Shown here: piece after piece, positions 4,679-47,190 of the stretch | Layout of the letters: each line of letters begins with the position of its first letter | Numbering within the stretch: position 1 is the stretch's first letter | Origin: Caenispirillum bisanense | GTDB lineage: Bacteria; Pseudomonadota; Alphaproteobacteria; Rhodospirillales; UBA2165 | Direction of reading: 5' to 3' | Length of the DNA stretch: 64,000 nucleotides | Assembly: GCA_945877815.1 (NCBI GenBank) | Contig: CAMDWJ010000008.1 | Span: 51,936-115,935 of the forward strand | Translations under genes and position numbers: made by a program | Notes under the pieces: model-generated | The model's database searches: none | What the model was told of the DNA's origin: nothing | Seen by the model: only the letters and a program-made list of their open reading frames with translations

Positions 4679-5794
4679 TTACCGCCGCGCGCTGAGCGCG
4701 CTTCGCGCGATATTGTCCTTCACGATCGCCGAGACAGGCACAAAGACGAAGCCGCGCGCCTTGGCATCGGGAATCCAACGCGCCAAGGCATCGATCGTGC
4801 CGTCGCGCGGATGGCCGATGGCGGTGGCGGCGCCGCGCGCGCGCGCGATCCGTTCCAACTCAGCCAATTGGCGGCCGACCGCGCTGGTCGTCGGTTCGTT
4901 ATCGAGAAACACGTCGCGCTCGGCGAACGGCAGTTGAAGACCGCGCGAAACCTCGCCGCCTACGGTATTGGGCCCGGTTCGAGAATCCAGGAACAACAGA
5001 CCGCGCCGTTTGATTTCACCCAACATGACCTGCATCGCCGCGCGGTCGGCGGTAAAAAGACTGCCCATGTGGTTGTTGACGCCGACATAGCCGTCGAATT
5101 TACCGAGCACGCGCGTCAGACGCGCCAGGATCTCGTCGGGCTCGATATCGCGTAACAGCACATCGGGGCCGGGATCCATCGAGCGGCTCGTGGCTTCCAT
5201 GGCAACATGCACCATCAATTCGTGCCCGGCGGCCGATGCCGCGCGCACCTGCGGGGTCAATCCCTCGCCGTAGGTCAGGAAAGAAATCGTGAGCGGCCCA
5301 GGCAACGCGATAATGCGCGCCGTACGATGATGATCGAGCCCTGCATCGTCGATGACGATAGCCACGCGTGGACCTGTTTCTACCGGAACTGACTTCGCGT
5401 ATTTCTGCCACGGCAAGGCTCCACTCGGCGCCGGCGGCAATTGAACGCGAGGCGTTGGAGGTGCGGCAACGGTTGCGGGCGGTTGTGGCGCCGGATCGAT
5501 CGCCGGTTCCATCGCTTCGGGCTCGTCGCGCAGCACGACCGGTTCTGCAGGTGGGGGTTTACGCGCCGGCAGTTCGCTCGCAACGATATCGGTGAATTGT
5601 TGCGACGCGTCGGTCGCCACGGCAAAGACCGCCACGGCGGCGGCAACCACAAATGTGAGTCCGACAAACGCCCCCATCCCGAGCTGGACGGCGCGTCGTG
5701 ACACGAGGCCCTTAAACTGCGCAAGCGCCGTCGGCTTAGCGCGCTTTTTCGCCGTCGCTTTTTTGCGTTTAGGTTTCGCCATGCCTGAATCCAC
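4679..5794 (-). CDS. divergent polysaccharide deacetylase (YibQ-like) family protein
   Basis: 371 aa from GTG 5794, with an alternative ATG at 5782. It has a Lys-rich N-terminus, one TM helix and a Pro-rich linker. The core then carries VAIVIDDAG, GVNNHMGS, FLDSRT and AIGHP, as in YibQ/PF04748-type proteins. Confidence 0.7.
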   Translation of the reverse strand: MDSGMAKPKRKKATAKKRAKPTALAQFKGLVSRRAVQLGMGAFVGLTFVVAAAVAVFAVATDASQQFTDIVASELPARKPPPAEPVVLRDEPEAMEPAIDPAPQPPATVAAPPTPRVQLPPAPSGALPWQKYAKSVPVETGPRVAIVIDDAGLDHHRTARIIALPGPLTISFLTYGEGLTPQVRAASAAGHELMVHVAMEATSRSMDPGPDVLLRDIEPDEILARLTRVLGKFDGYVGVNNHMGSLFTADRAAMQVMLGEIKRRGLLFLDSRTGPNTVGGEVSRGLQLPFAERDVFLDNEPTTSAVGRQLAELERIARARGAATAIGHPRDGTIDALARWIPDAKARGFVFVPVSAIVKDNIARSALSARR

Positions 5795-21844: not shown

Positions 21845-22308
21845 GGCGTACCGATCATTGCTGTGAATGTGGATTCGGCGACAATGGCGCCGTCGACCCT
21901 GGCGACGCCGCTGAATTTCCACACATTGCCGCGCTTCTGCTTCTTCTCGACATGAAGCTTGATCGTGTCGCCAGGTACAACTGGCTTTCGGAACCGCGCA
22001 CCTTCGACGGACATGAAATAAACGAGCTTTCCCTGATCCTCATCGCCTAAGGAATAGGCTACGAGCGCGCCTGCGGTTTGCGCCAGGGACTCGATTATCA
22101 AGACGCCGGGCATGATAGGTTGAGTGGGAAAATGTCCAAGAAAAAACGGCTCGTTCGCTGTTACGTTCTTGATACCGACGGCGCTCTCACCCACCACGAT
22201 CTCGGTCAAGCGATCGACAAGCAGAAACGGATAGCGATGCGGGATAAGCCGCTTAATATGTTCAATATCAAGCGTCGCGGGACCGCCGGATCGTGCTTCG
22301 GAGTCCAT
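21841..22308 (-). CDS. fabZ: 3-hydroxyacyl-ACP dehydratase
   Basis: 155 aa with motifs [24 protein letters not shown] and ESLAQ. Confidence 0.95.
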
Positions 22309-22311
22309 GAT

Positions 22312-23334
22312 CTAACGACCTTCCTTCGATTTGCGCAGCCGGTTCAAGAATGCAAGATTGCGCCAATGTTCACGCGATTCCATCGCAGGCGTGCCGGCGA
22401 CCGATACTCTGGCCGCTATATCATGGGTAACGCCGCTCTGCGCTGAAATACGCGCACCGTCACCAATGGTCAGATGTCCGATCAACCCGGCCTGTCCACC
22501 AATCATCACGTAATCACCGAGCGTGGTGCTTCCCGATATTCCAACTTGCCCAGTAATCAGGCATCCTTTTCCTATGATAACGTTATGTGCGATGTGCACC
22601 AAATTATCAATCTTGGTACCGTCTCCAACGACAGTATCGGGTGCGGCCCCTCTATCGATCGCGGAATTCGCGCCGATCTCGACATCATTACCGATGATCA
22701 CTCTGCCGAGTTGCGGAACTTTCGTGTGAATTCTGCCGGGCGCGAAGCCAAATCCGTCCTGTCCGATACGCACCCCCGGATGAAGGATGACACGGTCACC
22801 GACATCACAGTGGGTTAGAGTGCAATTGGATCCTATCGCGCAATTGGCGCCGATTCGCACTCCGTCGCCGATGACAGTGTTCGCGCCGATTGATGTTCCG
22901 AATCCGATCTCACATTCCTCGCCGACGACGACACCCGGCGCGATGGCTGCGCCGGTCGCGATACGGCTGGTGACAGCGATTGAAGCACTGGTGGCTATCG
23001 CGGGCGTGCGCCTCATAACCGGATAAAAGGCCTGAGCCACGAGTGCATAACTGCGATAGGGAGTCTTCGTGATCAACAGCGCCGCTGAGGCGGGCGCGCG
23101 CTCGACAAGATCGGGCGCCGTCAAAATCACCCCAGCGCGCGATGCTACAAAATCGGAAACATAGCGGCGATTATCGATGAAGCTGACATCCTCGGCTTCA
23201 GCGACCGTCAATGCCTTCACGTCGGAATACAATTTTCCGGAATCGCCACTGCCACCGATTTCAGCTTCTGCGATCCGCGAAAGATCTTTCAGACTGAATG
23301 GACCCGCTTTATCGAAGAAACGGGCATCCGCCAT
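22312..23334 (-). CDS. lpxD: UDP-3-O-acylglucosamine N-acyltransferase
   Basis: 340 aa with the LpxD N-terminal domain followed by a long left-handed beta-helix of hexapeptide repeats. Confidence 0.95.
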
Positions 23335-23337
23335 GGA

Positions 23338-23985
23338 CTATTTCTTTTTCGGTTCCGATGATTTTGCGGCTGCCGGAGCCTTTGCCTTGGTGGCCTGGGA
23401 CTTTTCCGCCTGCACGATATCATTGGGTATTTGAAATTTCGGCGCATTCTTGTTTATGCGTTCGAGGAGAAATTTCGTGATATCGAGAAAATCCGCAACT
23501 GTCAGGACCTGGCTGCGTCGCAAGATGAGCGTGAATTGCTGCTCCTTGGTGATATCCACCAAAGCCTTGTTCAGTTCCGTATTGAACGCATTGCGAACAT
23601 AGATACGGACACGATTAAAATGATCGTTCCGATCTTGAATATTCTTCTGAAAGCTCAGCTCGCGCTCGCGAAATTTGCGGACCTCTTGTTCAAACGCATC
23701 GGGCGCCATAAGCACCTTTTGACGCTGCAAATCCTCATTCGCTTTGCGCAACGAGGCTTCTTCCTGTTTCACTTCTTCGGAAAGCTTCATCCGCAACTGA
23801 TTGATCTGCGCGGTGATGTCCTTATTCATCAATGACTCGCGCTCAATCTCTTCGACGTCGACGACGCCAAATTTTACGACGCGCGTTTGATCTTGTGCAA
23901 AAGCGGATGGCGAAAGCAGCAAAGCAGATAGCAGGAGTACAGCACCGAAGGCACGCACGGCGGATACGAGGAATAAGGGTTTCAT
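23338..23985 (-). CDS. skp: OmpH/Skp family periplasmic chaperone
   Basis: 215 aa with a signal peptide ending AFAQ and a Lys/Glu/Gln-rich coiled-coil body. It sits between bamA and lpxD. Confidence 0.8.
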   Translation of the reverse strand: MKPLFLVSAVRAFGAVLLLSALLLSPSAFAQDQTRVVKFGVVDVEEIERESLMNKDITAQINQLRMKLSEEVKQEEASLRKANEDLQRQKVLMAPDAFEQEVRKFRERELSFQKNIQDRNDHFNRVRIYVRNAFNTELNKALVDITKEQQFTLILRRSQVLTVADFLDITKFLLERINKNAPKFQIPNDIVQAEKSQATKAKAPAAAKSSEPKKK

Positions 23986-23987
23986 GC

Positions 23988-26267
23988 TTAAAATCTGGTT
24001 CCAAAGTTGACGCGCAGAAGTTCAGCCTTGTCGAAATCTTCTTTTACGATCGGCACGCCAATATCGATGCTGATCGGCCCGAATGGGGAGGCCCAGCCCA
24101 CGCCGAAACCAGCCGATGCGCGAATGGCTCCTGAATCAGACACGGTGGGATTGGATGGGTTAACGCCCCCGGCACTGCCGAAATCCGTGAACAAGCGTCC
24201 GGAAATTCCGAGTTCCTCAGGCAATCCCAACGGAACCTTCAACTCTACGGAACCGTTGTAAACCCATTCACCACCCAGCGAGTCCTTGGTGGCCAAATCG
24301 CGAGGACCTGCGCCGGCCGACTTGAAGGCTCGCAGCGTTTCTCCGCCAAGGAAGAAGCGGTCTCCGATATTTACGTCTTCGCCAAGGCCCAAAATATAAC
24401 CCGTACGCCCATTGATCGACAGGATGTATTGCGGTGCCAAGGGATAGAACTGCGAGGCGCTAAGGACCGTACGTAAGTAGTGCACCGTGCCGCCAAGTCC
24501 AGCAACGTCGTTCGCGACGCGACCAATGAACCCTTCGGTCGGATTGATCTTACTATCGCGCCGGTCATAGGTAGTTACTTGCCCGACTTCGGAAACGTAG
24601 CGTTCGCCTTCCTGCTGTCGGACCAATGCGGACGCACCAGCGCGAACATTGTCGATTTCGCGATATCGGAAGCCATATTTGAGATTTTGACGCCAATATT
24701 CGCTCAACTGGTATCCGAGGCGCGCGGCCGAACCAGTTTCCCGCGTATCGTAGGAACGGCTGCTTTGAAGATCGCTCCTCGTATGGAAGACGTCGACACC
24801 GGCAGAAAGTTCCCGGTCCATGAAATATGGCTCTGTGAAGGACGAGCTGATCTGCGTCCGTTCGCCGGCAATCGTGGCATTGGCCGAAAGCGTTTGCCCG
24901 CGTCCCAACAGATTTCGTTCGCGAACCCCAACATCGAGCAAAGGCCCTTGGTCGGTCGCGTAACCAACACCGAGCGAGAGCGAGCCGGTCGATTTTTCCT
25001 CGACCTCGACCTTGACGACCGATTTGTCGGGGGCATTGCCAGGCACGTTCTGCACATCGACCTTGCCGAAGAAATCGAGATCTCGGATGCGCTGACGCGA
25101 ACGGCGAACCTTGGCCGCGTTGAACGCGTCGCCCTCGACCAATTGCACTTCGCGACGGATCACCTTGTCGATCGTTCGTACATTGCCCGAAATGTCGATC
25201 CTCTCGACGAAGACTCGCGGCCCTTCATTGATATCGTACGTTAAATCGACTGTTTGGGCCTCGCGGTTGCGATTGACGCGAGGACGCACCTCGACGAAGG
25301 CATATCCGCGCGTGCCGACTTCGTCCGCCAGCTTGGTTTGGGCGGCGTCAACGGCATCGCTATTGTACCAATCGCCCTTACTGAACTTCACTGTCGGCAG
25401 CAAATCGTCGCGGCTCAATCCGCGCAATCCAACGGCAACGTCGATATTGCCGAACTTGTAGCGTGGACCTTCGTCGACAGTGAACGTCAAAAAGAATTTG
25501 GTGCGATCTGCGGTAAGCTCGGCGACCGCGGATTCGACACGCACGTCGGCATAGCCTTCTTTGAGATAAAAGCGTCGCAGCAATTCACGATCGAAGGTCA
25601 CCCGATCAGGATCGTAGATGTCGTAGTTCGATAAGATTCGATAAAATGCGGCCTCCTTGGTTTTAACGACATCCCGGAGGTCGGAATCACTCATCACCTT
25701 GTTGCCGACGAAGCGGATTTTCTCGACCTTCGTCAGTGCGCCTTCGTCGATTTCAAAGACAAGGTCGGCGCGATTCTGATCGAGTTGAATGATTTTCGGC
25801 TCGACGGTCGCCGCGAAACGGCCGTTGACGCGATATACGTCGAGAATACGCTTAACGTCATTCTGCACTTTGGTACGCGTGAAGACGACTCGAGGACGCA
25901 ACGACACCTCGGCCAACAATGTCGCCTCTTCGACGCGCTTATTGCCCTCGAAAGCGATGCGGTTGATCACCGGATTTTCGACGACGTTCACGACCAGAGC
26001 GCGGCCGTTACGGGTGATCGTCACGTCGGCAAACAGGCCTGTTGCGAACAGGCTTTTCAGAGATTGATCGATCCGGCGCGGATCGAAGGGGTCGCCTTCC
26101 TGCAAAAGCAGATAGGAGCGTACGGTTTCGCGTTCGACGCGTTGGGTCCCCTGGACGACGACCTCGCCCACCGTGTCGGAGGCACCTTGCTGCGCGAACG
26201 CATCCAAGGGCCGCACCAGGACGAGAGCCACCAGAACCACTAACCACAGGATGCGTACGCCCAACAA
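23988..26267 (-). CDS. bamA: outer membrane protein assembly factor BamA
   Basis: 759 aa with a signal peptide, POTRA repeats and a C-terminal beta-barrel ending ...RVNFGTRF. The track start is a TTG. Confidence 0.95.
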   Translation of the reverse strand: MLGVRILWLVVLVALVLVRPLDAFAQQGASDTVGEVVVQGTQRVERETVRSYLLLQEGDPFDPRRIDQSLKSLFATGLFADVTITRNGRALVVNVVENPVINRIAFEGNKRVEEATLLAEVSLRPRVVFTRTKVQNDVKRILDVYRVNGRFAATVEPKIIQLDQNRADLVFEIDEGALTKVEKIRFVGNKVMSDSDLRDVVKTKEAAFYRILSNYDIYDPDRVTFDRELLRRFYLKEGYADVRVESAVAELTADRTKFFLTFTVDEGPRYKFGNIDVAVGLRGLSRDDLLPTVKFSKGDWYNSDAVDAAQTKLADEVGTRGYAFVEVRPRVNRNREAQTVDLTYDINEGPRVFVERIDISGNVRTIDKVIRREVQLVEGDAFNAAKVRRSRQRIRDLDFFGKVDVQNVPGNAPDKSVVKVEVEEKSTGSLSLGVGYATDQGPLLDVGVRERNLLGRGQTLSANATIAGERTQISSSFTEPYFMDRELSAGVDVFHTRSDLQSSRSYDTRETGSAARLGYQLSEYWRQNLKYGFRYREIDNVRAGASALVRQQEGERYVSEVGQVTTYDRRDSKINPTEGFIGRVANDVAGLGGTVHYLRTVLSASQFYPLAPQYILSINGRTGYILGLGEDVNIGDRFFLGGETLRAFKSAGAGPRDLATKDSLGGEWVYNGSVELKVPLGLPEELGISGRLFTDFGSAGGVNPSNPTVSDSGAIRASAGFGVGWASPFGPISIDIGVPIVKEDFDKAELLRVNFGTRF

Positions 26268-26291
26268 AACTCCCCCCGCGAATCCAATGGG

Positions 26292-27470
26292 TTAGGTCAA
26301 TAGGTTAGCAATAAACTCGAAAAACTTAAGATGCACAAGATCATTCCACGTGGCGAACACGAATAGCGCCAGAACCAACACTAATCCCAAGCGGAAACCG
26401 TACTCCTGGGCACGCGCTCCCAGCGGGCGTCCGCGAATCGCCTCGATTGCATAAAAGGCAAGATGCCCTCCGTCGAGCAACGGTACGGGAAACAGATTGA
26501 TCAAACCTAAATTTATCGACAGCACAGCCAAAAATGTGACGTAGTTCGCAATCCCCAATTCGGCGACCTGGCCCGACATCTGGGCGATCCGCAAAATCCC
26601 CCCGACTTCCTCGGCCGATTGCGTGCCGACGACGACATCGCGGATATAAGCGAGGATGCGGACAGTCACAACATAGGTACGCTCTATTCCCATCCAAATG
26701 GCTTGATGGGGCGCCTGACGAACATATTCTATCGGACCGGGATCCGCCGTCACACCCAACTGACCGCGGGTTATCTTGCCGCCGGACCGTTCCGAAATCT
26801 CGCGGGCGCTCGGAACGACGGTTAAACGAAGTTCGGAACCGTCACGAACCAAAGTCAGGGGCAACGACATCGCCGGACTAGCTTGAACAATCCGCTGAAG
26901 ATCTGAAAAAAGTGTGATCTTTTCGTCGCCGGCGACAACAACGCGATCACCGACTTTGAGACCGGCCTTTTCGGCAGCGCTACCCGGCGCGATGCTCCCG
27001 ATGATAGCCGGCAAGGGTGCGGTCGTATCCGTCTGAGGCATGCCGACGGCCATAAACAATATGGCGAAGGCGATGATCGCAAAAATATAGTTTACCAATG
27101 GGCCAGCGACAACGATTGCCGCGCGCTGGGCGATCGATTTGTGGTGGAATGAAACGGCGACTTCTTCGGGGGTCAGTGGTCGTTGATCTTTAGTCACTTC
27201 GTCGGCGATGGTTTCGCTTTCACCGAACATTTTGACATAGCCGCCCAATGGAATAGCGCATATCTTCCAGCGGGTTCCTGCCCGATCTGTCCAACCTTTG
27301 AGTTCCGTGCCGAAGCCGATCGAGAAAACCTCGACGCGTACGCCGTTCCAACGAGCGACCAAATAGTGGCCGAGTTCGTGAACGAAGACGAGAACGCTCA
27401 ACGCCACCAAGAACGGGACGCCGATCTCCCAGATAAAGCTAACGTTCGACATGAATGACGACGCTTCCAT
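26292..27470 (-). CDS. rseP: RIP zinc metalloprotease RseP
   Basis: It carries HELGHY in the first TM, a PDZ region and the LNLFPVPLLDGGH motif. The start is taken at ATG 27470, with an alternative at 27452. The track start 27578 overlaps dxr. Confidence 0.9.
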   Translation of the reverse strand: MEASSFMSNVSFIWEIGVPFLVALSVLVFVHELGHYLVARWNGVRVEVFSIGFGTELKGWTDRAGTRWKICAIPLGGYVKMFGESETIADEVTKDQRPLTPEEVAVSFHHKSIAQRAAIVVAGPLVNYIFAIIAFAILFMAVGMPQTDTTAPLPAIIGSIAPGSAAEKAGLKVGDRVVVAGDEKITLFSDLQRIVQASPAMSLPLTLVRDGSELRLTVVPSAREISERSGGKITRGQLGVTADPGPIEYVRQAPHQAIWMGIERTYVVTVRILAYIRDVVVGTQSAEEVGGILRIAQMSGQVAELGIANYVTFLAVLSINLGLINLFPVPLLDGGHLAFYAIEAIRGRPLGARAQEYGFRLGLVLVLALFVFATWNDLVHLKFFEFIANLLT

Positions 27471-27505
27471 AATTTGTCCGATACTCGATCTCGAAATAAG
27501 GACGA

Positions 27506-28702
27506 CTAAACGGCGGCAATGATATCCACAGCGAGGCGCCGGGCAGTCGCGTCGATACCAGCCACATCCTCGATACAAACGGGGGCACTCTCATTCGACC
27601 GACTTAGGGCATCCTCGACGACACGCGCGATCTCGAGGAACTTGAGTCCTCCGCTTAAGAAACGCGCTACGGCGACTTCGTTCGCCGCGTTCAGAACGAT
27701 CGGCGCCGCCCCGCCCGCGCGCAAGGCTTCCCTGGCTATCCGCAAAGCCGGAAAGCGGGTCATGTCTGGTGCCTCGAAGGTAAGATTGCCGATCGCTGCA
27801 AAATCCAGGCGGCGTGAGGGGGTCGGCATGCGTTTAGGCCAACCCAATGCGAATGAGATCGGAGTTCGCATGTCTGGGGTCCCCATCTGCGCCAGAACCG
27901 ATCCGTCAAGATAGGCCACCATACTGTGTACGACCGATTGCGGATGCACCAGGATTTCGATCTGATCTTCTGTTACAGGAAATAGGTAATAGGCCTCGAT
28001 CAATTCAAGGCCCTTATTCATCATTGTTGCCGAATCGACCGAAATTTTGGCGCCCATATCCCAATTTGGATGCGCAACGGCCTGGGCCGGTGTCACATGG
28101 ATCATCTGGTCGCGATCCAACGAACGGAACGGCCCTCCGGACGCAGTCAGGATCAATTTCTCGACCGACTGATCTTCGGCGAAATCGAAAACTTGGAAAA
28201 TTGCATTGTGTTCGGAATCAACGGGGATAAGCCGGCCGCCACCTTTTTCGACTTCCGAAATCAAGAAATCGCCGGCACAAACTAGGCATTCCTTGTTCGC
28301 GAGCCCGACAATCGCACCGCGCCGCGCCGCCGTAAGTGTCGGCTCCAAACCGGCAATGCCGACAATGGCAGCCATAACAAAATCGGTCGGACAGGCAGCT
28401 GCGTCCGCTAAAGCCGATGCCCCGGCCGCAACCTCCACACCCGTACCCGCCAATCCGTCTTTCAAGGTCGCGTACTTTTCCTCAGCTGCGATAACCGCCA
28501 ACTTCGGCCTGAAGGCGCGGGCCTGCGCGATCAGCAGATCGACATTGACATGACCGGTCAGTACGTCGACGTGGAAACTGTCCGGAGAACGTTCGATCAG
28601 ATCGAGGGTGTTACGGCCAACGGAACCGGTCGATCCGAGAATCGTGACCGAGCGAGTCTTGGATTCGCCAGACGGCATCGGACGCCCGAGTTTCATTTCC
28701 AT
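27506..28702 (-). CDS. dxr: 1-deoxy-D-xylulose-5-phosphate reductoisomerase
   Basis: 398 aa from ATG 28702, with an alternative at 28696. Motifs are ILGSTGSVG, DSEHNAIFQ and HPNWDMG. The start overlaps the cdsA end. Confidence 0.95.
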   Translation of the reverse strand: MEMKLGRPMPSGESKTRSVTILGSTGSVGRNTLDLIERSPDSFHVDVLTGHVNVDLLIAQARAFRPKLAVIAAEEKYATLKDGLAGTGVEVAAGASALADAAACPTDFVMAAIVGIAGLEPTLTAARRGAIVGLANKECLVCAGDFLISEVEKGGGRLIPVDSEHNAIFQVFDFAEDQSVEKLILTASGGPFRSLDRDQMIHVTPAQAVAHPNWDMGAKISVDSATMMNKGLELIEAYYLFPVTEDQIEILVHPQSVVHSMVAYLDGSVLAQMGTPDMRTPISFALGWPKRMPTPSRRLDFAAIGNLTFEAPDMTRFPALRIAREALRAGGAAPIVLNAANEVAVARFLSGGLKFLEIARVVEDALSRSNESAPVCIEDVAGIDATARRLAVDIIAAV

Positions 28703-29370
28703 GGCATGCTCCCCCCATGAGCCAGCCAATGGCTCGCCGCTGCAACGGGCGAAGCCAGCAGTACGCCATCGATACGATCCAGGATTCCGCCATGTCCCGG
28801 AATCAAATTTCCGGAGTCTTTGACGTCGAAACGTCGCTTCCACCATGACTCAACCAAATCGCCGATTTGCGATACGACGGAAATAACACCCGCCATCCCC
28901 AGCAGAACAATACTGGAATACGACAAATCCATGGCGCTGCCGGTCAGAAATCCGGCCGCAATGGCGCAGATAGCGCCACCGATTGCGCCCGACCAGGTTT
29001 TTTTCGGGCTAATCGCCGGCGCGAGCTTAGGACCGCCAACCGCACGGCCGATCAGATAGGCTCCGATATCCGTCGCCCAAACGACCGCAAAAAACGCAAC
29101 AACTAACCCGCGTCCCTGCTCGGCGTCGGCGCGCAGGACCAAAAGGCCGGCGCAGGCGACACCTACATAGAGAAGTCCGACCAGCGGCCAGGCAATACGA
29201 CCTGTGGCAGTCGTTTGGATATGACCATTCGCATTCGATACGCGGTACAATTCGACGACGGCGATCACGCCAATGACGAATACCATCGCATCAAAATAAG
29301 GCCAGCCGAACCAGATCGCGGCCAAAGCCGGAGGCGCTAGTACAATGGTCGAGATGAAACGAAGTAACAT
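28693..29370 (-). CDS. cdsA: phosphatidate cytidylyltransferase
   Basis: 225-aa polytopic protein with the CTP-transferase signature SxxKRxxxxKDxGxxxPGHGGxxDRxD (SWWKRRFDVKDSGNLIPGHGGILDRID). Confidence 0.85.
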   Translation of the reverse strand: MLLRFISTIVLAPPALAAIWFGWPYFDAMVFVIGVIAVVELYRVSNANGHIQTTATGRIAWPLVGLLYVGVACAGLLVLRADAEQGRGLVVAFFAVVWATDIGAYLIGRAVGGPKLAPAISPKKTWSGAIGGAICAIAAGFLTGSAMDLSYSSIVLLGMAGVISVVSQIGDLVESWWKRRFDVKDSGNLIPGHGGILDRIDGVLLASPVAAASHWLAHGGSMPWK

Positions 29371-29380
29371 CTATGCCGTC

Positions 29381-30112
29381 CTAAGTGCCGCCGAAGCGCC
29401 GTTCCCGGCGGTGAAACTCGGATACAACCTGAGCGAAATCCCGTTCCGAAAAATCAGGCCATAAGGTCTCAAGAAAAACGAACTCCGTATAGGCCATCTG
29501 CCACAACAGGAAATTGCTAATTCTCTGCTCGCCGCTCGTACGCAAGATGAGATCCGGGTCCGGAATCCCGACGGTGTCCAAACGCGCTGCGACCGCGCCT
29601 TCATCAATATCCGCGATGGACATCTTTCCATCCGCTATGTCGCGTGCAACGCGCCGCACCGCCTTTGCGATTTCCGCCCGTCCGCCATAACTGAGCGCCA
29701 CGACCAGATCGAGCTGTTGGTTCTTCGCGGTAAAGGACTCTGCGTCTTCGATCAATTTGATGATATCGGGACTGAGATCCGACCGTTCGCCGATTACGCG
29801 CAGCCGCACCCCATTTTTGTGAAGCTCCGCGATTTCGCTTTGCAGATAACGCCGAAGCAGCCCCATTAGGTCGTCGACTTCCTGGACAGGCCGTTTCCAG
29901 TTTTCGGAGGAAAAACTGTACAGAGTTAGATATCGGACGCCGTACTTAATTGCGCAACTCACAGCAGTGCGCACGGCATCGGCCCCTCGACGATGACCTT
30001 CTATACGGGGAAGGCCACGCGATTTCGCCCAGCGACCGTTGCCATCCATGATGATGGCGAGATGGATCGGAGCAGACGATCCGTCATCGGCATGTGAGGG
30101 GAGCGAAGTCAT
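29381..30112 (-). CDS. uppS: di-trans,poly-cis-undecaprenyl-diphosphate synthase
   Basis: 243 aa with motifs HLAIIMDGNGRWA, LTLYSFSSENW and RTSGEQRISNFLLWQ. Confidence 0.95.
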   Translation of the reverse strand: MTSLPSHADDGSSAPIHLAIIMDGNGRWAKSRGLPRIEGHRRGADAVRTAVSCAIKYGVRYLTLYSFSSENWKRPVQEVDDLMGLLRRYLQSEIAELHKNGVRLRVIGERSDLSPDIIKLIEDAESFTAKNQQLDLVVALSYGGRAEIAKAVRRVARDIADGKMSIADIDEGAVAARLDTVGIPDPDLILRTSGEQRISNFLLWQMAYTEFVFLETLWPDFSERDFAQVVSEFHRRERRFGGT

Positions 30113-30115
30113 TCA

Positions 30116-30676
30116 TCAAACCTGTAGTATGTCTTTCTCCTTGTGGGCGAAGGCATCGTCCAATTTGTTGACGTATTGGTCAGTCATATCCTGGACTTCC
30201 TTCGTCAACTTTTTGCCGTCGTCCTGCGAAATCTTGCCTTCTTTTTCGAGTCGTTTCAGTTCGTCCAGCCCGTGACGACGTACATTGCGGATAGCAACTT
30301 TAGCCTCTTCGTTATAGCGGCTTGCGATCTTGGTGATCTCCTTGCGCCGGTCTTCCGTCAAAGGCGGGATGGGCACGCGCACCAGTTGTCCGTCGGATTG
30401 GGGATTGAGCCCCAGATTGGATTCACGGATCGCCTTTTCGACGTGGGAAATCAGAGCGCGATCCCAAACTTGAACGGTCAATAAACGCGGTTCCGGAACC
30501 CCCACAGTACCGACCTGCGTGATCGGCATTTTTTGTCCGTAAGCGTCGACCATCAGATGTTCCAGCAAATTGGCCGAGGCACGGCCGGTCCGCAGACCGG
30601 CGAATTCCCGATGAAGAACCTCGAGTGCGCCGTCCATTCGACGTTTCATATCGGTACGTGTTGCGTCGAATTCCAT
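30116..30676 (-). CDS. frr: ribosome recycling factor
   Basis: 186 aa with typical RRF sequence (LRTGRA...LLE...V.AYG...P..Q ... IRN.RR). Confidence 0.95.
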
Positions 30677-30678
30677 CT

Positions 30679-31410
30679 CTAAGCCTCTCCCAACTCGCGA
30701 ATGATCGTCGATTTGCCACGGCCCGCCACGACCTCGGCAAATGCGCCGGGCGTGTGAATTGAAAAGACGAGAATGGGAATTCCGTTTTCGCGGGCGAGAG
30801 AAATTGCCGAGGCATCCATGACTTCGAGATCGTTCGTCAGCACGTCTTTATACGAAAGCTCTTCGTAGCGTTTCGCGTCCTTTACTTTTTTTGGATCGGC
30901 ACTATAGACCCCGTCGACTTGCGTCCCCTTCATCAGTGCGTCGCACCCCATTTCTGCGGCCCGTAACGCCGCAGCGGTATCGGTCGTGAAATAGGGGTTT
31001 CCGGTTCCGGCTGCGAAAATGACAACCCGGCCCTTTTGCAAATGTCGCACCGCGCGGCGGCGAATATAGGGTTCGCAAACGGATGCCATCGGGATCGCCG
31101 AAAGGACGCGTGTCTCGACATCGATGCTTTCGAGCACCGATTGGACGCCGAGCGCATTGATCACCGTCGCCAGCATTCCCATATGGTCGGCACTGGCGCG
31201 TTCTATGCCTGTCGCCATGCCGGACAGGCCGCGGAAAATATTACCGCCGCCGATGACAAGGCAAATTTCGACTCCCATGTCGCGCACGACGCGGACTTCA
31301 TGGGCGATTCGCTCCATCGCCTGCGATTCGAATCCGAATTGCTTGGCGCCCATCAGGCCTTCGCCCGACAATTTCAGCAATACGCGGCGATAGATCGGTT
31401 TTTCGGCCAT
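30679..31410 (-). CDS. pyrH: UMP kinase
   Basis: It starts [11 protein letters not shown] and carries IGGGNIFRG and [19 protein letters not shown] 31410 is preferred over the GTG at 31419. Confidence 0.95.
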
Positions 31411-31598
31411 GCCGTCCACTTCAGATTAACGTCCCTGCCGCGCCCCACTGGAGCACGACGCCATGCACGCAGACCACATCGGCCAGCCCGTCACGGCACC
31501 GTTAACGCAATATTCTACACGATTCCGCACGTCGTCGACCCCGAGATTTAACGGGGAATCGGGGCATTTCCCAGATATTCCGTCGACCGTGCGAAAGG

Positions 31599-32519
31599 CT
31601 AGGCCCCGGCTGCGGCCGCAACCTCTGCCGCGAAATCCTCATGTTTCTTTTCGATGCCTTCGCCGAGCGCAAAACGGCGGAATCCGGCGACTGTTACCGG
31701 CGCGCCGAGGTCCTTAGCAGCCTTGGTGACTGCATCGGCGACCTTGGTTTCGCCGTCGATGACGTAGGTTTGCTCCAGCAGGCAGACTTCCTCATAATAC
31801 TTGCGAAGCCGGCCTTCGACCATCTTTTCGATGATGTTTTCGGGACGCCCCGAGGAGCGCGCCATCTCGATCTGAAGGTTCTTTTCACGTTCCAGATCCG
31901 CCACGTTGACGTCAGCCCGCGACAAAGCCGTCGGATTGGCCGCCGCCACATGCATGGCCAGCTGCTTGCCGAGGGCTTCGAGCGTCGCTGCGTCTCCTTT
32001 GGATTCGAGCGCCACGAGGACGCCAATCTTGCCAAGACCCGGCTTCAAAGCACTGTGCATGTAGGACACGACAACGCCGGAACCAACCGACAGGACCGAC
32101 GCACGGCGCAGATTCATGTTCTCGCCGATGGTAGCAATCAGCGTCGTCAGCGTTTCGCTGACGGTTGCCGCACCGATCTTGGCAATCTTCAGGGCTTCGA
32201 TATCTTCACCCGTACTTATCGTCAGATCCGTCACCTGCTGGACGAAGGCCTGGAATTGGTCGTTGCGCGCAACGAAGTCCGTCTCGGCATTTACCTCGAC
32301 GATGGCGCCTTTGGTCCCGTTGGTCACGACGCCCACCAGACCTTCCGACGCGGTGCGTCCGGATTTCTTCGCCGCAGAGGCTAGGCCTTGCTTGCGCAGC
32401 CAATCCACAGCCGCTTCCACATCGCCGTCGTTGGTCGCCAGTGCCTTCTTGCAATCCATCATGCCGGCGCCGGTTTTTTCGCGCAGATCTTTGACCAGCG
32501 CAGCTGTAATTTCCGCCAT
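31599..32519 (-). CDS. tsf: elongation factor Ts
   Basis: 306 aa starting [27 protein letters not shown]. Confidence 0.95.
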
Positions 32520-43018: not shown

Positions 43019-44572
43019 CTAATAAGACCTAGCAACGAGTATTTCCTCGACACCGGGTTTACCCGTGAAGAGGCACGCAGAGTGGCTGGGTGGCTGGGCG
43101 AGCGGCGCATTGCGGATGGTAATCTTGAGCGATGCAAGCTCCGCCTCGACCTTCTCCAACTCAGGCCCCGTCGGGCGGCACCACGAAACCCGGACCCAAC
43201 CCGGATTATTGTCGCCACCCGCATCTTCGTCATCCGCCACGCTGGCTCCGAAGAAGGCCTTCAGATCGGCCAGGGTTTTGACACCGTCGTGGATGCGGCT
43301 GGTCATTTTTTCGCGCGCTTCGTTCAGCATGCCGTTCTGCATCTCATCGAGGATGCCGCCAACGGCAGCAACAAACTCGTCCTTGGCCATCGCCGTGGCG
43401 CTGGCCTTTTCACCGTTATAGAGGCGATCACGGCGCAGGAAACTCACTTGTCCGTTACTGGCCTCGCGCCCGCCGATCTCGACGATCAAGGGCACGCCCT
43501 TGCGGACCAGATCCCAGCGCTTGGCGCTGGCGTTCTTGTCCTTGGTGTCCACGCCGACGCGAAGGACGGCACCGCAGGCCATTTGTTTGCGAAGTTGTTG
43601 TTGCAGCGCGTTGCAATAGGCGATCAATTCGGCATCGGCAGGCTCCCCCCGCAGGCGTGGCACGATAACGATCTGCTTCGGCGCCAGCGCGGGCGGAAGG
43701 CGAAGTCCATCATCGTCGCCATGGGTCATGATCAAACCGCCGATCAGACGGGTCGAAACGCCCCAGCTTGTCGTATGGGCGAATTTCTCGGTTCCGTCGG
43801 CGGCCTGGAATTTGATGAGCTGCGCCTCGGAAAAGTGGGTGCCGAGGTAATGCGAGGTTCCGGCCTGCAAGGCCTTGCCGTCCTGCATCATCGCCTCGAT
43901 GGAAAAGGTATTGTCCGCACCTGGGAAGCGCTCGTTCGCTGTTTTTTCGCCGGCGACCACCGGCATAGCCATCTCCGTCTCGACGAATTCGCGATAGACT
44001 TCGAGCATGCGCATGGTCTCGGCGAAGGCATCGTCGCGATCTACATGGGCGGTATGACCTTCCTGCCAAAGGAACTCGGCCGTGCGCAGAAATAGGCGCG
44101 TGCGCATTTCCCAGCGCACCACATTCGCCCACTGGTTGATCAGGATCGGCAGATCGCGATAGGAGCTGATCCAATTGCGGAAGGAATCCGCGATGATGGT
44201 TTCCGAGGTCGGGCGCACGATTAAAGGTTCGGTCAGCTTCGCATCCGGATCGGGCACCAGCTCGCCGTCGATCATCTTGAGGCGATGATGGGTGACGACC
44301 GCCATCTCCTTGGCGAAGCCTTCGACATGCTCGGCTTCCTTGGCGATGAAGCTCAGCGGAATGAACAGCGGGAAATAGCAATTTTCGTGACCGGTCTCCT
44401 TGAAGCGCCGATCGAGCCCCTGCTGGATCAGCTCCCAAATACCGTAGCCCCACGGCCGGATGACCATGCAGCCGCGCACCGCCGAATTTTCGGCCAGGTC
44501 GGCTTCGCGCACGACTTCCTGGTACCAGGCGCTGAAATTGGCGGACCGGGATATTTTCAGCGCTCTTTGCAT
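43019..44572 (-). CDS. proS: proline--tRNA ligase, archaeal/eukaryote-like architecture
   Basis: 517 aa. It carries FSAWYQEVVREADLAENSAVRGCMVIRPWGYGIWE and GHENCYFPLFIP...EAEHVEGF. It has no INS editing insertion, and the protein ends in ...ARSY with a C-terminal Tyr. Confidence 0.9.
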   Translation of the reverse strand: MQRALKISRSANFSAWYQEVVREADLAENSAVRGCMVIRPWGYGIWELIQQGLDRRFKETGHENCYFPLFIPLSFIAKEAEHVEGFAKEMAVVTHHRLKMIDGELVPDPDAKLTEPLIVRPTSETIIADSFRNWISSYRDLPILINQWANVVRWEMRTRLFLRTAEFLWQEGHTAHVDRDDAFAETMRMLEVYREFVETEMAMPVVAGEKTANERFPGADNTFSIEAMMQDGKALQAGTSHYLGTHFSEAQLIKFQAADGTEKFAHTTSWGVSTRLIGGLIMTHGDDDGLRLPPALAPKQIVIVPRLRGEPADAELIAYCNALQQQLRKQMACGAVLRVGVDTKDKNASAKRWDLVRKGVPLIVEIGGREASNGQVSFLRRDRLYNGEKASATAMAKDEFVAAVGGILDEMQNGMLNEAREKMTSRIHDGVKTLADLKAFFGASVADDEDAGGDNNPGWVRVSWCRPTGPELEKVEAELASLKITIRNAPLAQPPSHSACLFTGKPGVEEILVARSY

Positions 44573-44641: not shown

Positions 44642-46282
44642 CTAGCGGCCGCTCAAGACCCGTTGGCACTGGGCCTGGAATTCAGCGGAGGCTTGCTCAT
44701 CGAGCGGCTGATCGTTGAAGGTCAGCTTGCCCGTCTTGAGGTCGAATTTGACGGTCCGGGCGCTGCCTTCGGGGACGCCGCCGGGAATCGGCGTTGCCGC
44801 GACTGCATTGGACGCCGCCACGGCGGTGGTATTGCCCGATACGGGGATGCCAACGGCCTCGACCGCATCGCCGGCCGTCGCGGCGGTCGCTTGTCCAGCC
44901 GTCAGCAAGGCAGCCTTGTCAGTATCGTTGCCTGCCGCCGTTATCGCGAGGCTTGCAACTGTAGCCGCCGACTGGACGGCCGATGTCGCGAGAGATGAAA
45001 TCTGAGCCGGCGTGCCGGCTGATGCCGCCGCAACTGCCCGGGCCTGCGCAAGATCGGCTGCGGTCCGGATCGCCACGCTATCGGCTTGGGCCTGGGCATA
45101 GGTTGACGCTGCGGTCGTCGCCGTTGCCCGGGCGGTGTTCCTCGTATCGCGCTTAGTCGCATTCAGGAGATCGGCATCGAGCGCGGTCTGCGCAGCCGTC
45201 AGGGCCGTAGTGGCGGTCGTCGAGGCGGTTTTCGCCGTTGCCTCGATGGTCGCTGCGGATTTCGCCGTCAACTCGGCCTGCAGCGCCGCTGCCTGCGCCG
45301 CCGAAATCGCCGCCGCGCGGAACCCGGACGCATTGGTCGCCCCCGCAACGGCGGCCTGCGACACTGTCTTGGCGGCACTGAGCGCCGCCGAATCCGTGTT
45401 CTGCCCCGCCGTCAGCAAGGTCGCCTTGGCGGCATCCGTGCCGGCCGCCGTCTTTGCCAGCGCGGCGGCCCGGGCCGCCGCCAGCACAGCCGCATTGGAT
45501 TGGGCAGCGATAGCGTCGGCCGTGCCCGCCGTCCCCGCCGCCGTGGCTGCGGCGCGCGCGGCATCGGCAGCGGCATCGATAGCCAGTGTATCGGCCTGGG
45601 CCTGGGCGTAAGTCGCGGCAGCGGTCGCCGCCGTTGCCCGGGCTGTGTTGCGGGTGTCGCGTTTGGTCGTATTCAACGGATCTGCGTCGAGCGCGGTCTG
45701 CGCCGTGGTCAGCGCGGTTTCCGCTGTCGTCTTGGCCGTCAACGCGGCCGTTTCAATCGTCGTGGCCGCAGTCGCGGCCGCTTCCGCCGATGTGGCGACG
45801 GTGCCGGCGGCGGTGGCGGCGGTTTTCGCCTTCTCGGCGGCGATGGCCGCCGCACTTGCCGCGTTGGCGCTCGCATTCTGCGTCGCCCCCATATATTTGG
45901 CGAAGTCGATCTTCACATCCATGGTGATGACGTCTGGCAGCTTGATCTGCGGCGAGCCGGCGAGATCGGCAGGTGCTACCTTGCGCCCGCGTGCATCGAC
46001 ACCCGGTTTGTATTCCACATTGGCCGCCGGTTGATGGGCGACGGCCCTACGGCAATCGGCGGCGCTGATCTTCACTTGCGTCGGTTTGACTTGCGGCGGC
46101 GGGATGATCGCGATGGCGGGTTCTTCGGGTGGACGAACCTGAACCGGCGTTCGTGCCGGCGGTTGGGCGATTGCCGGCCCCTCGCCGGCCCACACTACCG
46201 AATGGAAGGTTATCGGGGCGCATGCGAAGAACGACCCGGCAAGGATTGCCGCACCCGAGACCAGAGCGCGCGATTGGCGCAT
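44642..46282 (-). CDS. hypothetical secreted Ala/Thr-rich repeat protein
   Basis: 546 aa from ATG 46282, with GAGGA 8 nt upstream. It has a signal-like N-terminus, a Pro-rich linker and non-repetitive end modules. The Ala/Thr core of about 340 aa shows 170-aa periodicity. Third codon positions are GC-rich, as in neighbouring genes. Confidence 0.6.
   Translation of the reverse strand: MRQSRALVSGAAILAGSFFACAPITFHSVVWAGEGPAIAQPPARTPVQVRPPEEPAIAIIPPPQVKPTQVKISAADCRRAVAHQPAANVEYKPGVDARGRKVAPADLAGSPQIKLPDVITMDVKIDFAKYMGATQNASANAASAAAIAAEKAKTAATAAGTVATSAEAAATAATTIETAALTAKTTAETALTTAQTALDADPLNTTKRDTRNTARATAATAAATYAQAQADTLAIDAAADAARAAATAAGTAGTADAIAAQSNAAVLAAARAAALAKTAAGTDAAKATLLTAGQNTDSAALSAAKTVSQAAVAGATNASGFRAAAISAAQAAALQAELTAKSAATIEATAKTASTTATTALTAAQTALDADLLNATKRDTRNTARATATTAASTYAQAQADSVAIRTAADLAQARAVAAASAGTPAQISSLATSAVQSAATVASLAITAAGNDTDKAALLTAGQATAATAGDAVEAVGIPVSGNTTAVAASNAVAATPIPGGVPEGSARTVKFDLKTGKLTFNDQPLDEQASAEFQAQCQRVLSGR
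44888..45787. repeat. in-frame tandem duplication, period 510 bp (two about 390-bp well-conserved cores)
   Basis: The cores are 45398-45787 and 44888-45277. For example, ATCTGCGTCGAGCGCGGT at 45680-45697 matches ATCGGCATCGAGCGCGGT at 45170-45187, and the TKRDTRNTAR coding block is present in both. Confidence 0.85.
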
Positions 46283-46293
46283 CGCGCCCGTCC

Positions 46294-46854
46294 TCAATCG
46301 GCGTCGCCGGTTCTTCCAGGATTACGCATCCAGGCCGGCCCGCTTTCGGCGATACGCCGATAGATCGGGCACTGGACCGTGTGCGCGCCTGGGAGATAAC
46401 CGATGCTCATCAAGAATTCTCCGACAACTTCCTTACCCATGAATGCGAAGGTCGAGCGGAACAGCTTACACCATTCCATGCGCGACATGGGATGGTGCGC
46501 TTCGATCCATTGTCCGAACCCGCCATGGCTATGACGCAATTCCTGGACCACTTTCGCGTTATGGATGGTAGCCTCGATTTTGCGCCGATTGCGGATAATC
46601 AGGGGATCGTTGAGTAGACGTTCGATATCGGTAGCATCGAAAGCCGCTACGCGGTCCACCTTAAAGTTCTCGAATGCGAGCGCGAACGCCGGACGTTTCT
46701 TCAAAATGATGAGCCAGGACAATCCGGCCTGGAAGATCTCGAGCGTCAAACGCTCGAACAGCACGGACTCGTCGTCGACGGGAAATCCATATTCGGAATC
46801 GTGATACGGCGCGTGAACCTGATGGCCCGGAGCAGTCTCGCAATAAGAAGTCAT
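46294..46854 (-). CDS. tag: DNA-3-methyladenine glycosylase I
   Basis: 186 aa from ATG 46854, with GGGAGA upstream; the track TTG start is at 46866. It carries YHDSEYGFPV.DES.LFERLTLEIFQAGLSWLIILKKR and a Tag-like C-terminus. Confidence 0.8.
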   Translation of the reverse strand: MTSYCETAPGHQVHAPYHDSEYGFPVDDESVLFERLTLEIFQAGLSWLIILKKRPAFALAFENFKVDRVAAFDATDIERLLNDPLIIRNRRKIEATIHNAKVVQELRHSHGGFGQWIEAHHPMSRMEWCKLFRSTFAFMGKEVVGEFLMSIGYLPGAHTVQCPIYRRIAESGPAWMRNPGRTGDAD

Positions 46855-46959
46855 GTTATCTCCCAAAGCCCCCGGGAGGTCTCCCTGGGTATGCAGATAA
46901 CCAATCAGATCGGTTTAGGACAATGCAAAAGTGCGACCCCGCCTTGCGGAATCGTTATC

Positions 46960-47190
46960 TCAACGAAAGGTGATGAGGTCGTACACGTAAATCAAATAAA
47001 TAATGCCCCAGACAACCAGGGCAACAAGTGTGTTGATCGCCAGCTTCAGTCCGATATTGGATTTTCTGGGCGCGCCACGATCGTTGCCGACATTGATGTC
47101 GTCGTCGCGCTGGATGCCGAACGGCAAGACCATGAACAGCGTGATCCACCAGACCACGAAATAAACCGCCAGATTGGTTATCCATCCCAT
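46960..47190 (-). CDS. DUF1467 family small membrane protein
   Basis: 76 aa with two TM helices (MGWITNLAVYFVVWWITLFMVLPFG...). It occupies the usual alphaproteobacterial position downstream of the nuo cluster, by my recollection. Confidence 0.75.
   Translation of the reverse strand: MGWITNLAVYFVVWWITLFMVLPFGIQRDDDINVGNDRGAPRKSNIGLKLAINTLVALVVWGIIYLIYVYDLITFR

Follow-up and report, generated by a model that had tools for sequence, protein, structure and literature searches.

We analyzed gene X, which lies on the minus strand of a 64,000-nucleotide stretch of Caenispirillum bisanense DNA (contig CAMDWJ010000008.1, positions 51,936 to 115,935 of the forward strand; hereafter, the window). Its coding sequence, 546 amino acids (aa) plus stop, was placed at 44642..46282 from the open reading frame (ORF) listing and the homologues; from an alternative TTG start at 46297 the ORF (44642..46297) would encode 551 aa. 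Residue numbers below are those of the 546-aa protein unless the 551-aa numbering is indicated. The combined interpretation that we consider likely is that X encodes an exported domain with two cysteines, one loop of which has received an insert of two old helical units, and that the core is the functional part and the insert an accessory. An initial annotation, made from the sequence alone, had instead described two terminal modules separated by an extended helical or fibrous spacer that grew by a fairly recent internal duplication, and had assigned the protein to no family.

A full-length, word-indexed search, which was swamped by Ala-rich words, returned only six relatives of 322-501 aa. 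These six shared an N-terminal block (DCRR...ADVAYKPGVDVRG..VAPAD...LPDV..FDV.ID..YLG), a C-terminal block (G.V.F.I.TG.LTFNGQPL.......C) and a middle region, rich in Ala and Thr, that varied in length. With a profile of the N block (A2), 663 proteins were found at E values down to 1e-38, and most of them were only 105-160 aa long. Such short relatives consist of a signal peptide, the N block and the C block, with the two blocks separated by about 10-15 residues. One of them, P0028 (144 aa; ...KLPDVISLDVKIDLSKYATIPSGLSPEASAGTVKFDLRSGKLTFNDQPLDDEAAYELQAECQRVLSGR), has an N block about 70% identical to that of the window protein, and its C-terminus, ...QAECQRVLSGR, matches the ending of the window protein. 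When 1.84 billion cluster representatives (50%-identity clusters) were searched exhaustively with a profile, 2,047 matched at E<=1e-3, of which 1,512 had E<=1e-10. The matches listed were mostly 130-160 aa long; longer ones matched in two stretches, indicating that they carry an insert. Thus, conserved homologues of the terminal modules and orthologues without the Ala/Thr insert, both of which the initial annotation had suggested looking for, do exist. While it is correct that the protein belongs to no curated family, it does belong to a large unnamed one, which is confined to Rhodospirillales-type Alphaproteobacteria, has no curated model and is undescribed.

The conserved columns of this family are found in the window protein on both sides of the insert. 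The N half of the core, aa 71-130 (45893..46072, minus strand), is delimited by invariant columns and the models described below, and is 78% identical to that of the orthologue L001, encoded in an independent assembly, the Rhodospirillaceae metagenome-assembled genome (MAG) RE-9nov16-338 (CANIGJ010000018.1). The invariant Cys77 (codon 46052-46054) lies here in a helix; the half also includes the conserved loop NVEYKPGVDARGRKVAPADL and strand beta1 (ITMDVKI), and it shows the family motif D-C-R-R..(A)DV(A/E)YKPGVD.RG..VAPAD...I.LPDV..(F)D, in which D76, C77, V89, Y91, K92, G94, D96, G99, V102, A105 and P116 are invariant or nearly so (A1/A4 alignments). The C half, aa 501-546 (44645..44782, minus strand), delimited in the same way, is 76% identical to that of L001 and contains strands beta2 and beta3 (RTVKFDLK and LTF), the NDQPL motif and, in its C-terminal helix, the invariant Cys539 (codon 44666-44668). 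It shows the motif G.V.(F/Y)(D/N)...G.(L/M)TFN(G/D)QPL.......C, with G509, V511, N523, G524 and C539 conserved (A4). Exactly two cysteines are found in the mature part of the window protein and of 206 of the 210 complete family members, and a hydrophobic N-terminal leader in 218 of 227 members; judged by sequence, this signature is that of an exported, disulfide-bonded domain. As the halves are directly joined in most relatives, sequence and models together indicate that the N and C "modules" are the two halves of one domain of about 105 aa, split by the Ala/Thr insertion. Members of about 135 aa with two cysteines (for example WP_148560914.1 / CCQ73903.1 and MBL8806589.1) share with the window protein the N and C motifs, both cysteines, the signal peptide and the gene position rnj-[DUF1467]-[tag]-X-proS-lolE; the window protein differs from most members by its additional 370-aa helical insertion and a Pro-rich linker, neither of which most members have.

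The AlphaFold2 (AF2) model of the short form P0028, built from a 77-sequence alignment, had a mean predicted local distance difference test score (pLDDT) of 71.6 and comprised helix 37-45 with the first Cys, an irregular conserved loop, strands 81-89, 103-112 and 118-120, and helix 127-141 with the second Cys. The model of the window protein (84-sequence alignment; mean pLDDT 71.2) had its sole strands at 118-124 in the N half and at 507-514 and 520-522 in the C half. Since the strands are split between the halves, the predicted sheet must pair N-half with C-half strands. The insert replaces the beta1-beta2 loop, which has about 9-13 residues in short members (ATIPSGLSP in P0028), and a Cys77-Cys539 disulfide would staple the two helices of the core. 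The original proposal, a fibrous spacer between two terminal modules that are independent of each other, would be in keeping with the predicted helicity of the region, with the reality of the repeat and with the different numbers of units in orthologues. However, the modules are adjacent and always occur together in about 2,000 relatives, and both models contain one beta-sheet; the insert must exit from the domain and return to it at a single point. We therefore regard the spacer proposal, together with the recent duplication and strain-level repeat variation that belong to it, as quite improbable.

The insertion itself, aa 131-500 (44783..45892, minus strand), is 39% Ala and 17% Thr (57% Ala plus Thr), with only 13% charged residues. 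The count of 27 Ala among residues 141-200 (551-aa numbering) in the initial annotation was reproduced, but its "two aromatics" in this region were three (Y230, F326, and Y400, same numbering). AF2 also bore out its expectation of a helical middle region: residues 137-478 were modeled as all-helical, in eight helices. Unit 1 was predicted to form a hairpin of helices 137-200 and 205-251 (pLDDT 90-97) with its turn at DADPLN, followed by helices 255-279 and 283-314; unit 2 was predicted to form a hairpin of helices 318-370 and 375-421 (pLDDT 84-90) with its turn at DADLLN, followed by helices 425-449 and 453-478. In the model each unit is, thus, a long antiparallel hairpin (arms of about 50-64 and 47 residues; with 0.15 nm per residue, 7-9 nm) and a pair of shorter helices. 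The motif at the hairpin tip is TALDADPLN in unit 1 (45671..45697, minus strand) and TALDADLLN in unit 2 (45161-45187), and a tip motif (A/E)-D-P-x-N/D recurs in the long forms of other lineages. Thr and Ser residues of the insert showed a periodicity of 3.4 residues, above the 95% level of shuffled sequences, which fits helices with a Thr-rich face.

Sequences of this composition might instead be disordered, low-complexity linkers, possibly O-glycosylated, in which the predicted helices are artefacts of Ala-richness. The high Ala plus Thr content and scarcity of charge would suit such a linker, as would the shallow alignment of the insert, the pLDDT values below 50 at 288-297 and 475-504 of the model, and the wholesale change of insert composition in other lineages. 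Against it stand the constraint on the sequence, which is 65% identical to L001 with a ratio of nonsynonymous to synonymous substitution rates (dN/dS) of 0.24, and the 65% identity between the two repeat copies despite saturated synonymous sites; the helical periodicity of Thr and Ser, the conservation of the tip motif across lineages and the hairpin pLDDT of 84-97 also argue against disorder. On balance we think a disordered linker unlikely. The dN/dS values relative to L001 were 0.28 for the whole protein, 0.21 for the N half, 0.24 for the insert and 0.11 for the neighboring proS, and they indicate that the insert is under purifying selection, which would also account for the retention of both repeat copies.

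The existence of homologues, together with dN/dS below 1, argues that the frame is a translated, real gene, as the initial annotation had taken it to be. Within the insert, residues 171-300 and 341-470 (551-aa numbering) align without gaps at an offset of 170, with 85 of 130 positions identical. When the insert was shuffled 500 times with its composition preserved, the best window of 130 residues at any offset had a mean of 40.3 identities (sd 2.1, maximum 50), which shows that the repeat is not a by-product of low complexity or composition. The aligned part of copy 1 is aa 166-295 (45398..45787, minus strand; full 170-aa unit 1, 45278-45787), and that of copy 2 is aa 336-465 (44888..45277, minus strand; full 170-aa unit 2, 44768-45277). 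The shared blocks lie where they had been described, namely TALDAD at 45680-45697 and 45170-45187, TKRDTRNTAR at aa 211 and 381, TYAQAQAD at 229 and 399, and LLTAGQ at 294 and 464 (551-aa numbering). At offsets other than 170, which would have revealed finer sub-repeats within the unit, identity did not rise above that of shuffles. Tandem Repeats Finder (TRF), whose longest period is 500, missed this repeat with its period of 510 bp.

An assembly artefact, or a chance frame in GC-rich DNA, would fit with the silence of TRF and with the several long ORFs that overlap X on the opposite strand, as is usual in DNA of 66% GC. The two copies, however, are only 66% identical as DNA (74, 81 and 43% at the three codon positions), and their longest exact run is 17 nt; the same two-unit architecture is present in the independently assembled L001. 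These observations exclude an artefact of assembly, and a chance frame would not have hundreds of homologues or a dN/dS of 0.28. We give this explanation practically no credence, and conclude that the 510-bp-period duplication is genuine.

The duplication does not appear to be fairly recent, as had been supposed. The rate of synonymous substitution (dS) between the copies is 1.28, with third positions only 43% identical, and the L001 protein, which has the same neighbors and differs in sequence only, is collinear with the window protein over both copies (65% identity over 547 columns, 8 gaps). When the 130-aa copy segments of the window (W1, W2) and of L001 (L1, L2) were compared with one another, identities were 0.70 for W1-L1, 0.61 for W2-L2, 0.65 for W1-W2, 0.59 for L1-L2 and 0.58 for both crossed pairs (W1-L2 and W2-L1). 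By these pairwise identities the duplication is old and predates the split of the window and L001 organisms. Between 45161 and 45697 of the window, both window copies have TALDAD and TKRDTRNTAR, whereas both L001 copies have TARAAD and TLRD or TLRE. Since such positions agree within a genome and differ between genomes, they suggest occasional local gene conversion between the copies of each genome.

Variation in the number of units was examined among relatives found in a scan of one genome per species, in which 184 stretches encoded family members; the best 80 of these 184 loci were analyzed. Nearly all hosts were of the Rhodospirillales type (Tagaea, Thalassobaculum, Nisaea, Thalassospira, Niveispirillum, Azospirillum, Oleisolibacter and Magnetovibrio). 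Among the best 80 loci, the distance from the DC motif to the stop was 103-133 aa, corresponding to no insert, in about 60 and 243-275 aa, corresponding to one unit, in about 15; it was 389 aa in L005 and 469 aa in L001, as compared with 470 aa in the window protein. A neighbor-joining tree of the concatenated halves, which is indicative only, grouped the window protein with L001 (two units), P0001 (one unit) and P0028 and P0038 (none), and placed this clade next to the one holding most other insert-bearing members. At one and the same locus, DUF1467-tag-X-proS-lolE, there are no units in L082 (DUF1467-tag-X, with X of 144 aa), one in L081 (nuoN-birA-coaX-rnj-DUF1467-tag-X-proS-lolE-lolD) and two in the window and L001, where the gene order is like that of L081. 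The suggestion that copy number may vary between strains was borne out only in part, the variation of 0, 1 or 2 units at this locus being one among related species or genera.

Single-unit proteins are equally similar (42-45%) to units 1 and 2 of the window protein, and these units are 65% identical to each other; the equal similarity indicates that the duplication arose in the lineage of the window and L001. A separate, independent duplication, with halves 42% identical, is present in P0004 and L005. The long forms have in common the insert start AAAASAAAIAADKA and the tip motif (A/E)DPxN/D, and these shared features favor, but do not prove, a single origin of the unit followed by losses. Inserts of other lineages at the same site range from 40 to 370 aa (40-80 aa in P0196, P0215 and P0249) and can be of quite different composition, being rich in Ala, Glu, Arg and Gln in P0225 and P0247 and in Ser, Thr, Gln, Asn and Leu in P0273 and P0280. 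As these compositions differ, the feature that is kept is a helical insert at this loop and not Ala/Thr richness itself, which may owe much more to genomic GC content than to function.

We propose the following scheme for the origin and role of the insert. The ancestral form would have had about 105 mature residues, folded as a Cys helix, the conserved loop ADVAYKPGVDVRGxxVAPADL, a small beta-sheet and a second Cys helix; its beta1-beta2 loop would then have received the 370-residue Ala/Thr-rich, all-helical insertion, arranged as two tandem units of about 170 aa. Having an even number of antiparallel helices, each unit would begin and end at the same point, so that whole units could be gained or lost in a hairpin loop without straining the core. 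The occurrence of orthologues with 0, 1 and 2 units, and of an independent duplication elsewhere, fits such gain and loss of whole units. The core would be the working part and would bind an envelope partner, probably through the invariant loop, which occurs in every form and is conserved better than any other element. As close orthologues have no insert, it would be dispensable for the core function, and our best guess is that it serves as an accessory rigid projection or spacer whose length has been tuned in evolution.

Several points weigh against this likely interpretation of an exported core domain with an accessory helical insert. The confidence of AF2 in the core is moderate (pLDDT about 60-85), only seven sequences in the alignment extend over the insert, and Ala-rich sequence is easily modeled as helical by AF2. 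Export is argued from sequence features only, and the disulfide, the packing of the two halves and the functions of core and insert are features that we infer. Furthermore, the conserved neighborhood (birA, coaX, rnj, tag, proS and lolCDE) consists of unrelated housekeeping genes that give no functional hint, and all family members are called "hypothetical protein" in their sources (e.g., WP_148560914.1 of Magnetospira sp. QH-2).

A bolder version of the proposal, which we regard as rather doubtful, is that a widespread family of exported, disulfide-stapled mini-domains bears, in one beta-hairpin loop, a telescopic helical stalk whose length, 0 to about 370 residues, is set by the gain and loss of whole four-helix units and tunes periplasmic reach, for instance in sensing distance or in spacing the layers of the envelope, with the window protein as its longest known version. 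If the likely interpretation is correct, it would bring to notice a large family (about 2,000 clusters at 50% identity) without a curated model, which, as it resides in a conserved housekeeping neighborhood, is probably part of the normal envelope biology of Rhodospirillales. X would also be a clean example of protein growth by loop insertion followed by duplication and loss of self-closing helical units, with orthologues of 0, 1 and 2 units at hand to compare, and it would show that a sequence that looks to be of low complexity (57% Ala plus Thr) can be conserved position by position under purifying selection. The practical benefit would be modest until the function is found; X is a good evolutionary example and has held no functional surprise so far.

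Comparison with known families and structures gave no significant match. An exact look-up of the 551-aa product found no record, searches of Pfam-A and NCBIfam gave no family at E<=1 for the window protein and only noise for 77 relatives, and a sequence profile search of the PDB gave no match at E<=10. The literature, searched for periplasmic proteins of Alphaproteobacteria with Ala-rich helical hairpins, yielded nothing relevant. With Foldseek against the PDB, the best E values, 0.61 for the core model and 0.28 for the full model, were not significant. The best Foldseek matches of the full model were the periplasmic sensor TorS (3o1h/3o1i), trypanosome GARP (2y44) and a factor H receptor (6xz6), which, like the window model, have long antiparallel helical bundles outside the cytoplasm. 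TorS, moreover, is a duplicated four-helix bundle. However, these matches had E values of at least 0.28, template modeling (TM) scores of 0.3 or less and no sequence similarity, and all three are autonomous domains, whereas the window insert is a loop insertion.

Long Ala-rich, Thr-containing helices that fold back as hairpins are also known from Alacoil coiled coils and from the type I antifreeze protein Maxi. With regard to the Alacoil, in which Ala occupies a fixed heptad core position of antiparallel helix pairs, antiparallel hairpins were predicted here, and the Ala periodicity of 3.6 residues had a power of 1.14, as compared with a mean maximum of 1.24 in shuffles. A likeness to type I antifreeze proteins and Maxi was rejected, since the Thr peak was at 3.4 residues and an 11-residue (3.67) signal was not among the top periods. 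Neither Alacoils nor Maxi are homologous to the window insert, whose Ala-richness is not shared by related inserts of other lineages.

The coding sequence begins with a putative signal peptide, aa 1-32 (46187..46282, minus strand), of the Sec/signal peptidase I type (MRQSR, hydrophobic core, VWA|GE), recognized from its sequence, the family leaders and the alignment with L001. The export signal noted in the initial annotation was, thus, found again, and the protein is most likely exported by Sec to the periplasm. It is followed by a Pro-rich linker, aa 33-70 (46073..46186, minus strand), with 11 Pro in residues 41-75 of the 551-aa numbering and pLDDT below 50 in the AF2 model. This linker is lineage-specific and, together with the signal peptide, is the least conserved part of the protein (47% identity to L001). 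In the 551-aa numbering the cysteines are residues 26, within the signal peptide, 82 and 544, the last two, correctly located before, being 77 and 539 of the 546-aa protein.

The first of these cysteines, Cys21 in the sequence FFAC, raises the possibility of an Lpp-like envelope tether or ruler, i.e., a lipoprotein anchored by Cys21 whose helices set the distance between the membranes or between membrane and peptidoglycan. Consistent with a tether are this Cys in the leader, the predicted helix lengths of 7-9 nm, the evolutionary variation in insert length and the presence of lolCDE two genes downstream of X. On the other hand, FFAC is a poor lipobox whose Cys neither L001, the closest orthologue, nor most family members possess, and we rejected the lipoprotein reading on these grounds. 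In addition, most members have no insert, so that a ruler cannot be the core function of the family, and the predicted arrangement of the helices is that of antiparallel hairpins within a loop, not of a parallel coiled coil. We consequently consider a tether very unlikely, and retain the interpretation of an exported two-Cys domain with a helical loop insert.

The ATG at 46282 is preceded at 8 nt by the Shine-Dalgarno-like sequence GAGGA (46291..46295, minus strand), in agreement with the earlier reading of the start, and this sequence overlaps the TGA stop (46294-46296) of the upstream gene tag (46294..46866, minus strand), which encodes DNA-3-methyladenine glycosylase I (Pfam PF03352). The tag stop and the ATG of X are 11 nt apart, and the same arrangement is found in L001, L081 and L082. 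Downstream, 69 nt beyond the stop of X, is proS (43019..44572, minus strand), identified by Pfam and synteny, which encodes a prolyl-tRNA synthetase (ProRS) of 517 aa with a ProRS-C_1 tail. As the gaps are only 11 nt and 69 nt, the sequence suggests that tag, X and proS are co-transcribed. In a scan for promoters and terminators, counts were no higher than in shuffles, and there was no terminator-like site between tag, X and proS. With rnj, (DUF1467) and (tag) on one side and proS and lolE on the other, X is in the usual position of the family, at least one of these neighbors being present at 59 of the 80 family loci. The GC content at third codon positions of the X ORF is 0.75.

On the opposite strand, several long ORFs of 129-287 aa overlap X at 45135-46363 (plus strand); they are Arg/Gly/Ala-rich and unsupported, and represent antisense artefacts of the kind typical of DNA rich in GC and in Ala codons. 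A small ORF for a 76-aa membrane protein (MGWITNLAVYFVVWWITLFMVLPFG...) lies at 46960-47190 (minus strand), between rnj and tag, and occupies the position of the DUF1467 gene in L081 and L082. In L081 (5001-6506, with the junction at about 5500-5560) tag and X form a single 501-aa ORF, P0001, in which the C-terminus of Tag (...KPAW) is joined to the hydrophobic core of the X signal peptide with no intervening stop, ribosome-binding site or ATG. Either a genuine fusion or deletion or an error in the MAG would explain the junction; if it is genuine, X would there be without its normal N-terminal signal.

The prolyl-tRNA synthetase of the 517-519-aa form with a ProRS-C_1 domain is encoded in the window (43019-44572, minus strand), in L001 (5525-7078) and in L081 (6547-8106). 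With the window ProRS as query (tblastn, E<1e-10), L001 was the sole match among the 80 family loci, and L081, which was fetched later, has the same 519-aa type by Pfam annotation. At most of the 80 loci there is a gap of about 1.4 kb between X and lolE, with room for a proS, and the ProRS type of the window clade may differ from that of other Rhodospirillales at the same position.

A clade with a single insert of about 150 aa comprises L006, L008-L010, L015, L017, L020, L021, L027, L031, L033, L036, L039 and L071. None of six window neighbors was matched within 4 kb of the gene in this clade, in which either the gene has been relocated or the members are paralogues. In L005 and L008 the neighborhood was of a different context and gave no functional clue, ORF picking being unreliable in the GC-rich DNA there. 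Family genes were also found on MAG contigs not labeled as Rhodospirillales, namely L057, L060 and L065 (Marinimicrobia), L075 (Hydrogenophaga) and L073 (Rhizobium sp. Q54). L057, L060 and L065 also have the Rhodospirillales neighborhood (rnj, coaX and lolE), while a tag match is all that L073 and L075 have; mis-binning is the probable explanation for these contigs. Elsewhere in the window, positions 22001-32000 have a G+C content of 0.53-0.57, as compared with about 0.60 in the rest of the window, and may be horizontally acquired DNA or represent a different gene class.

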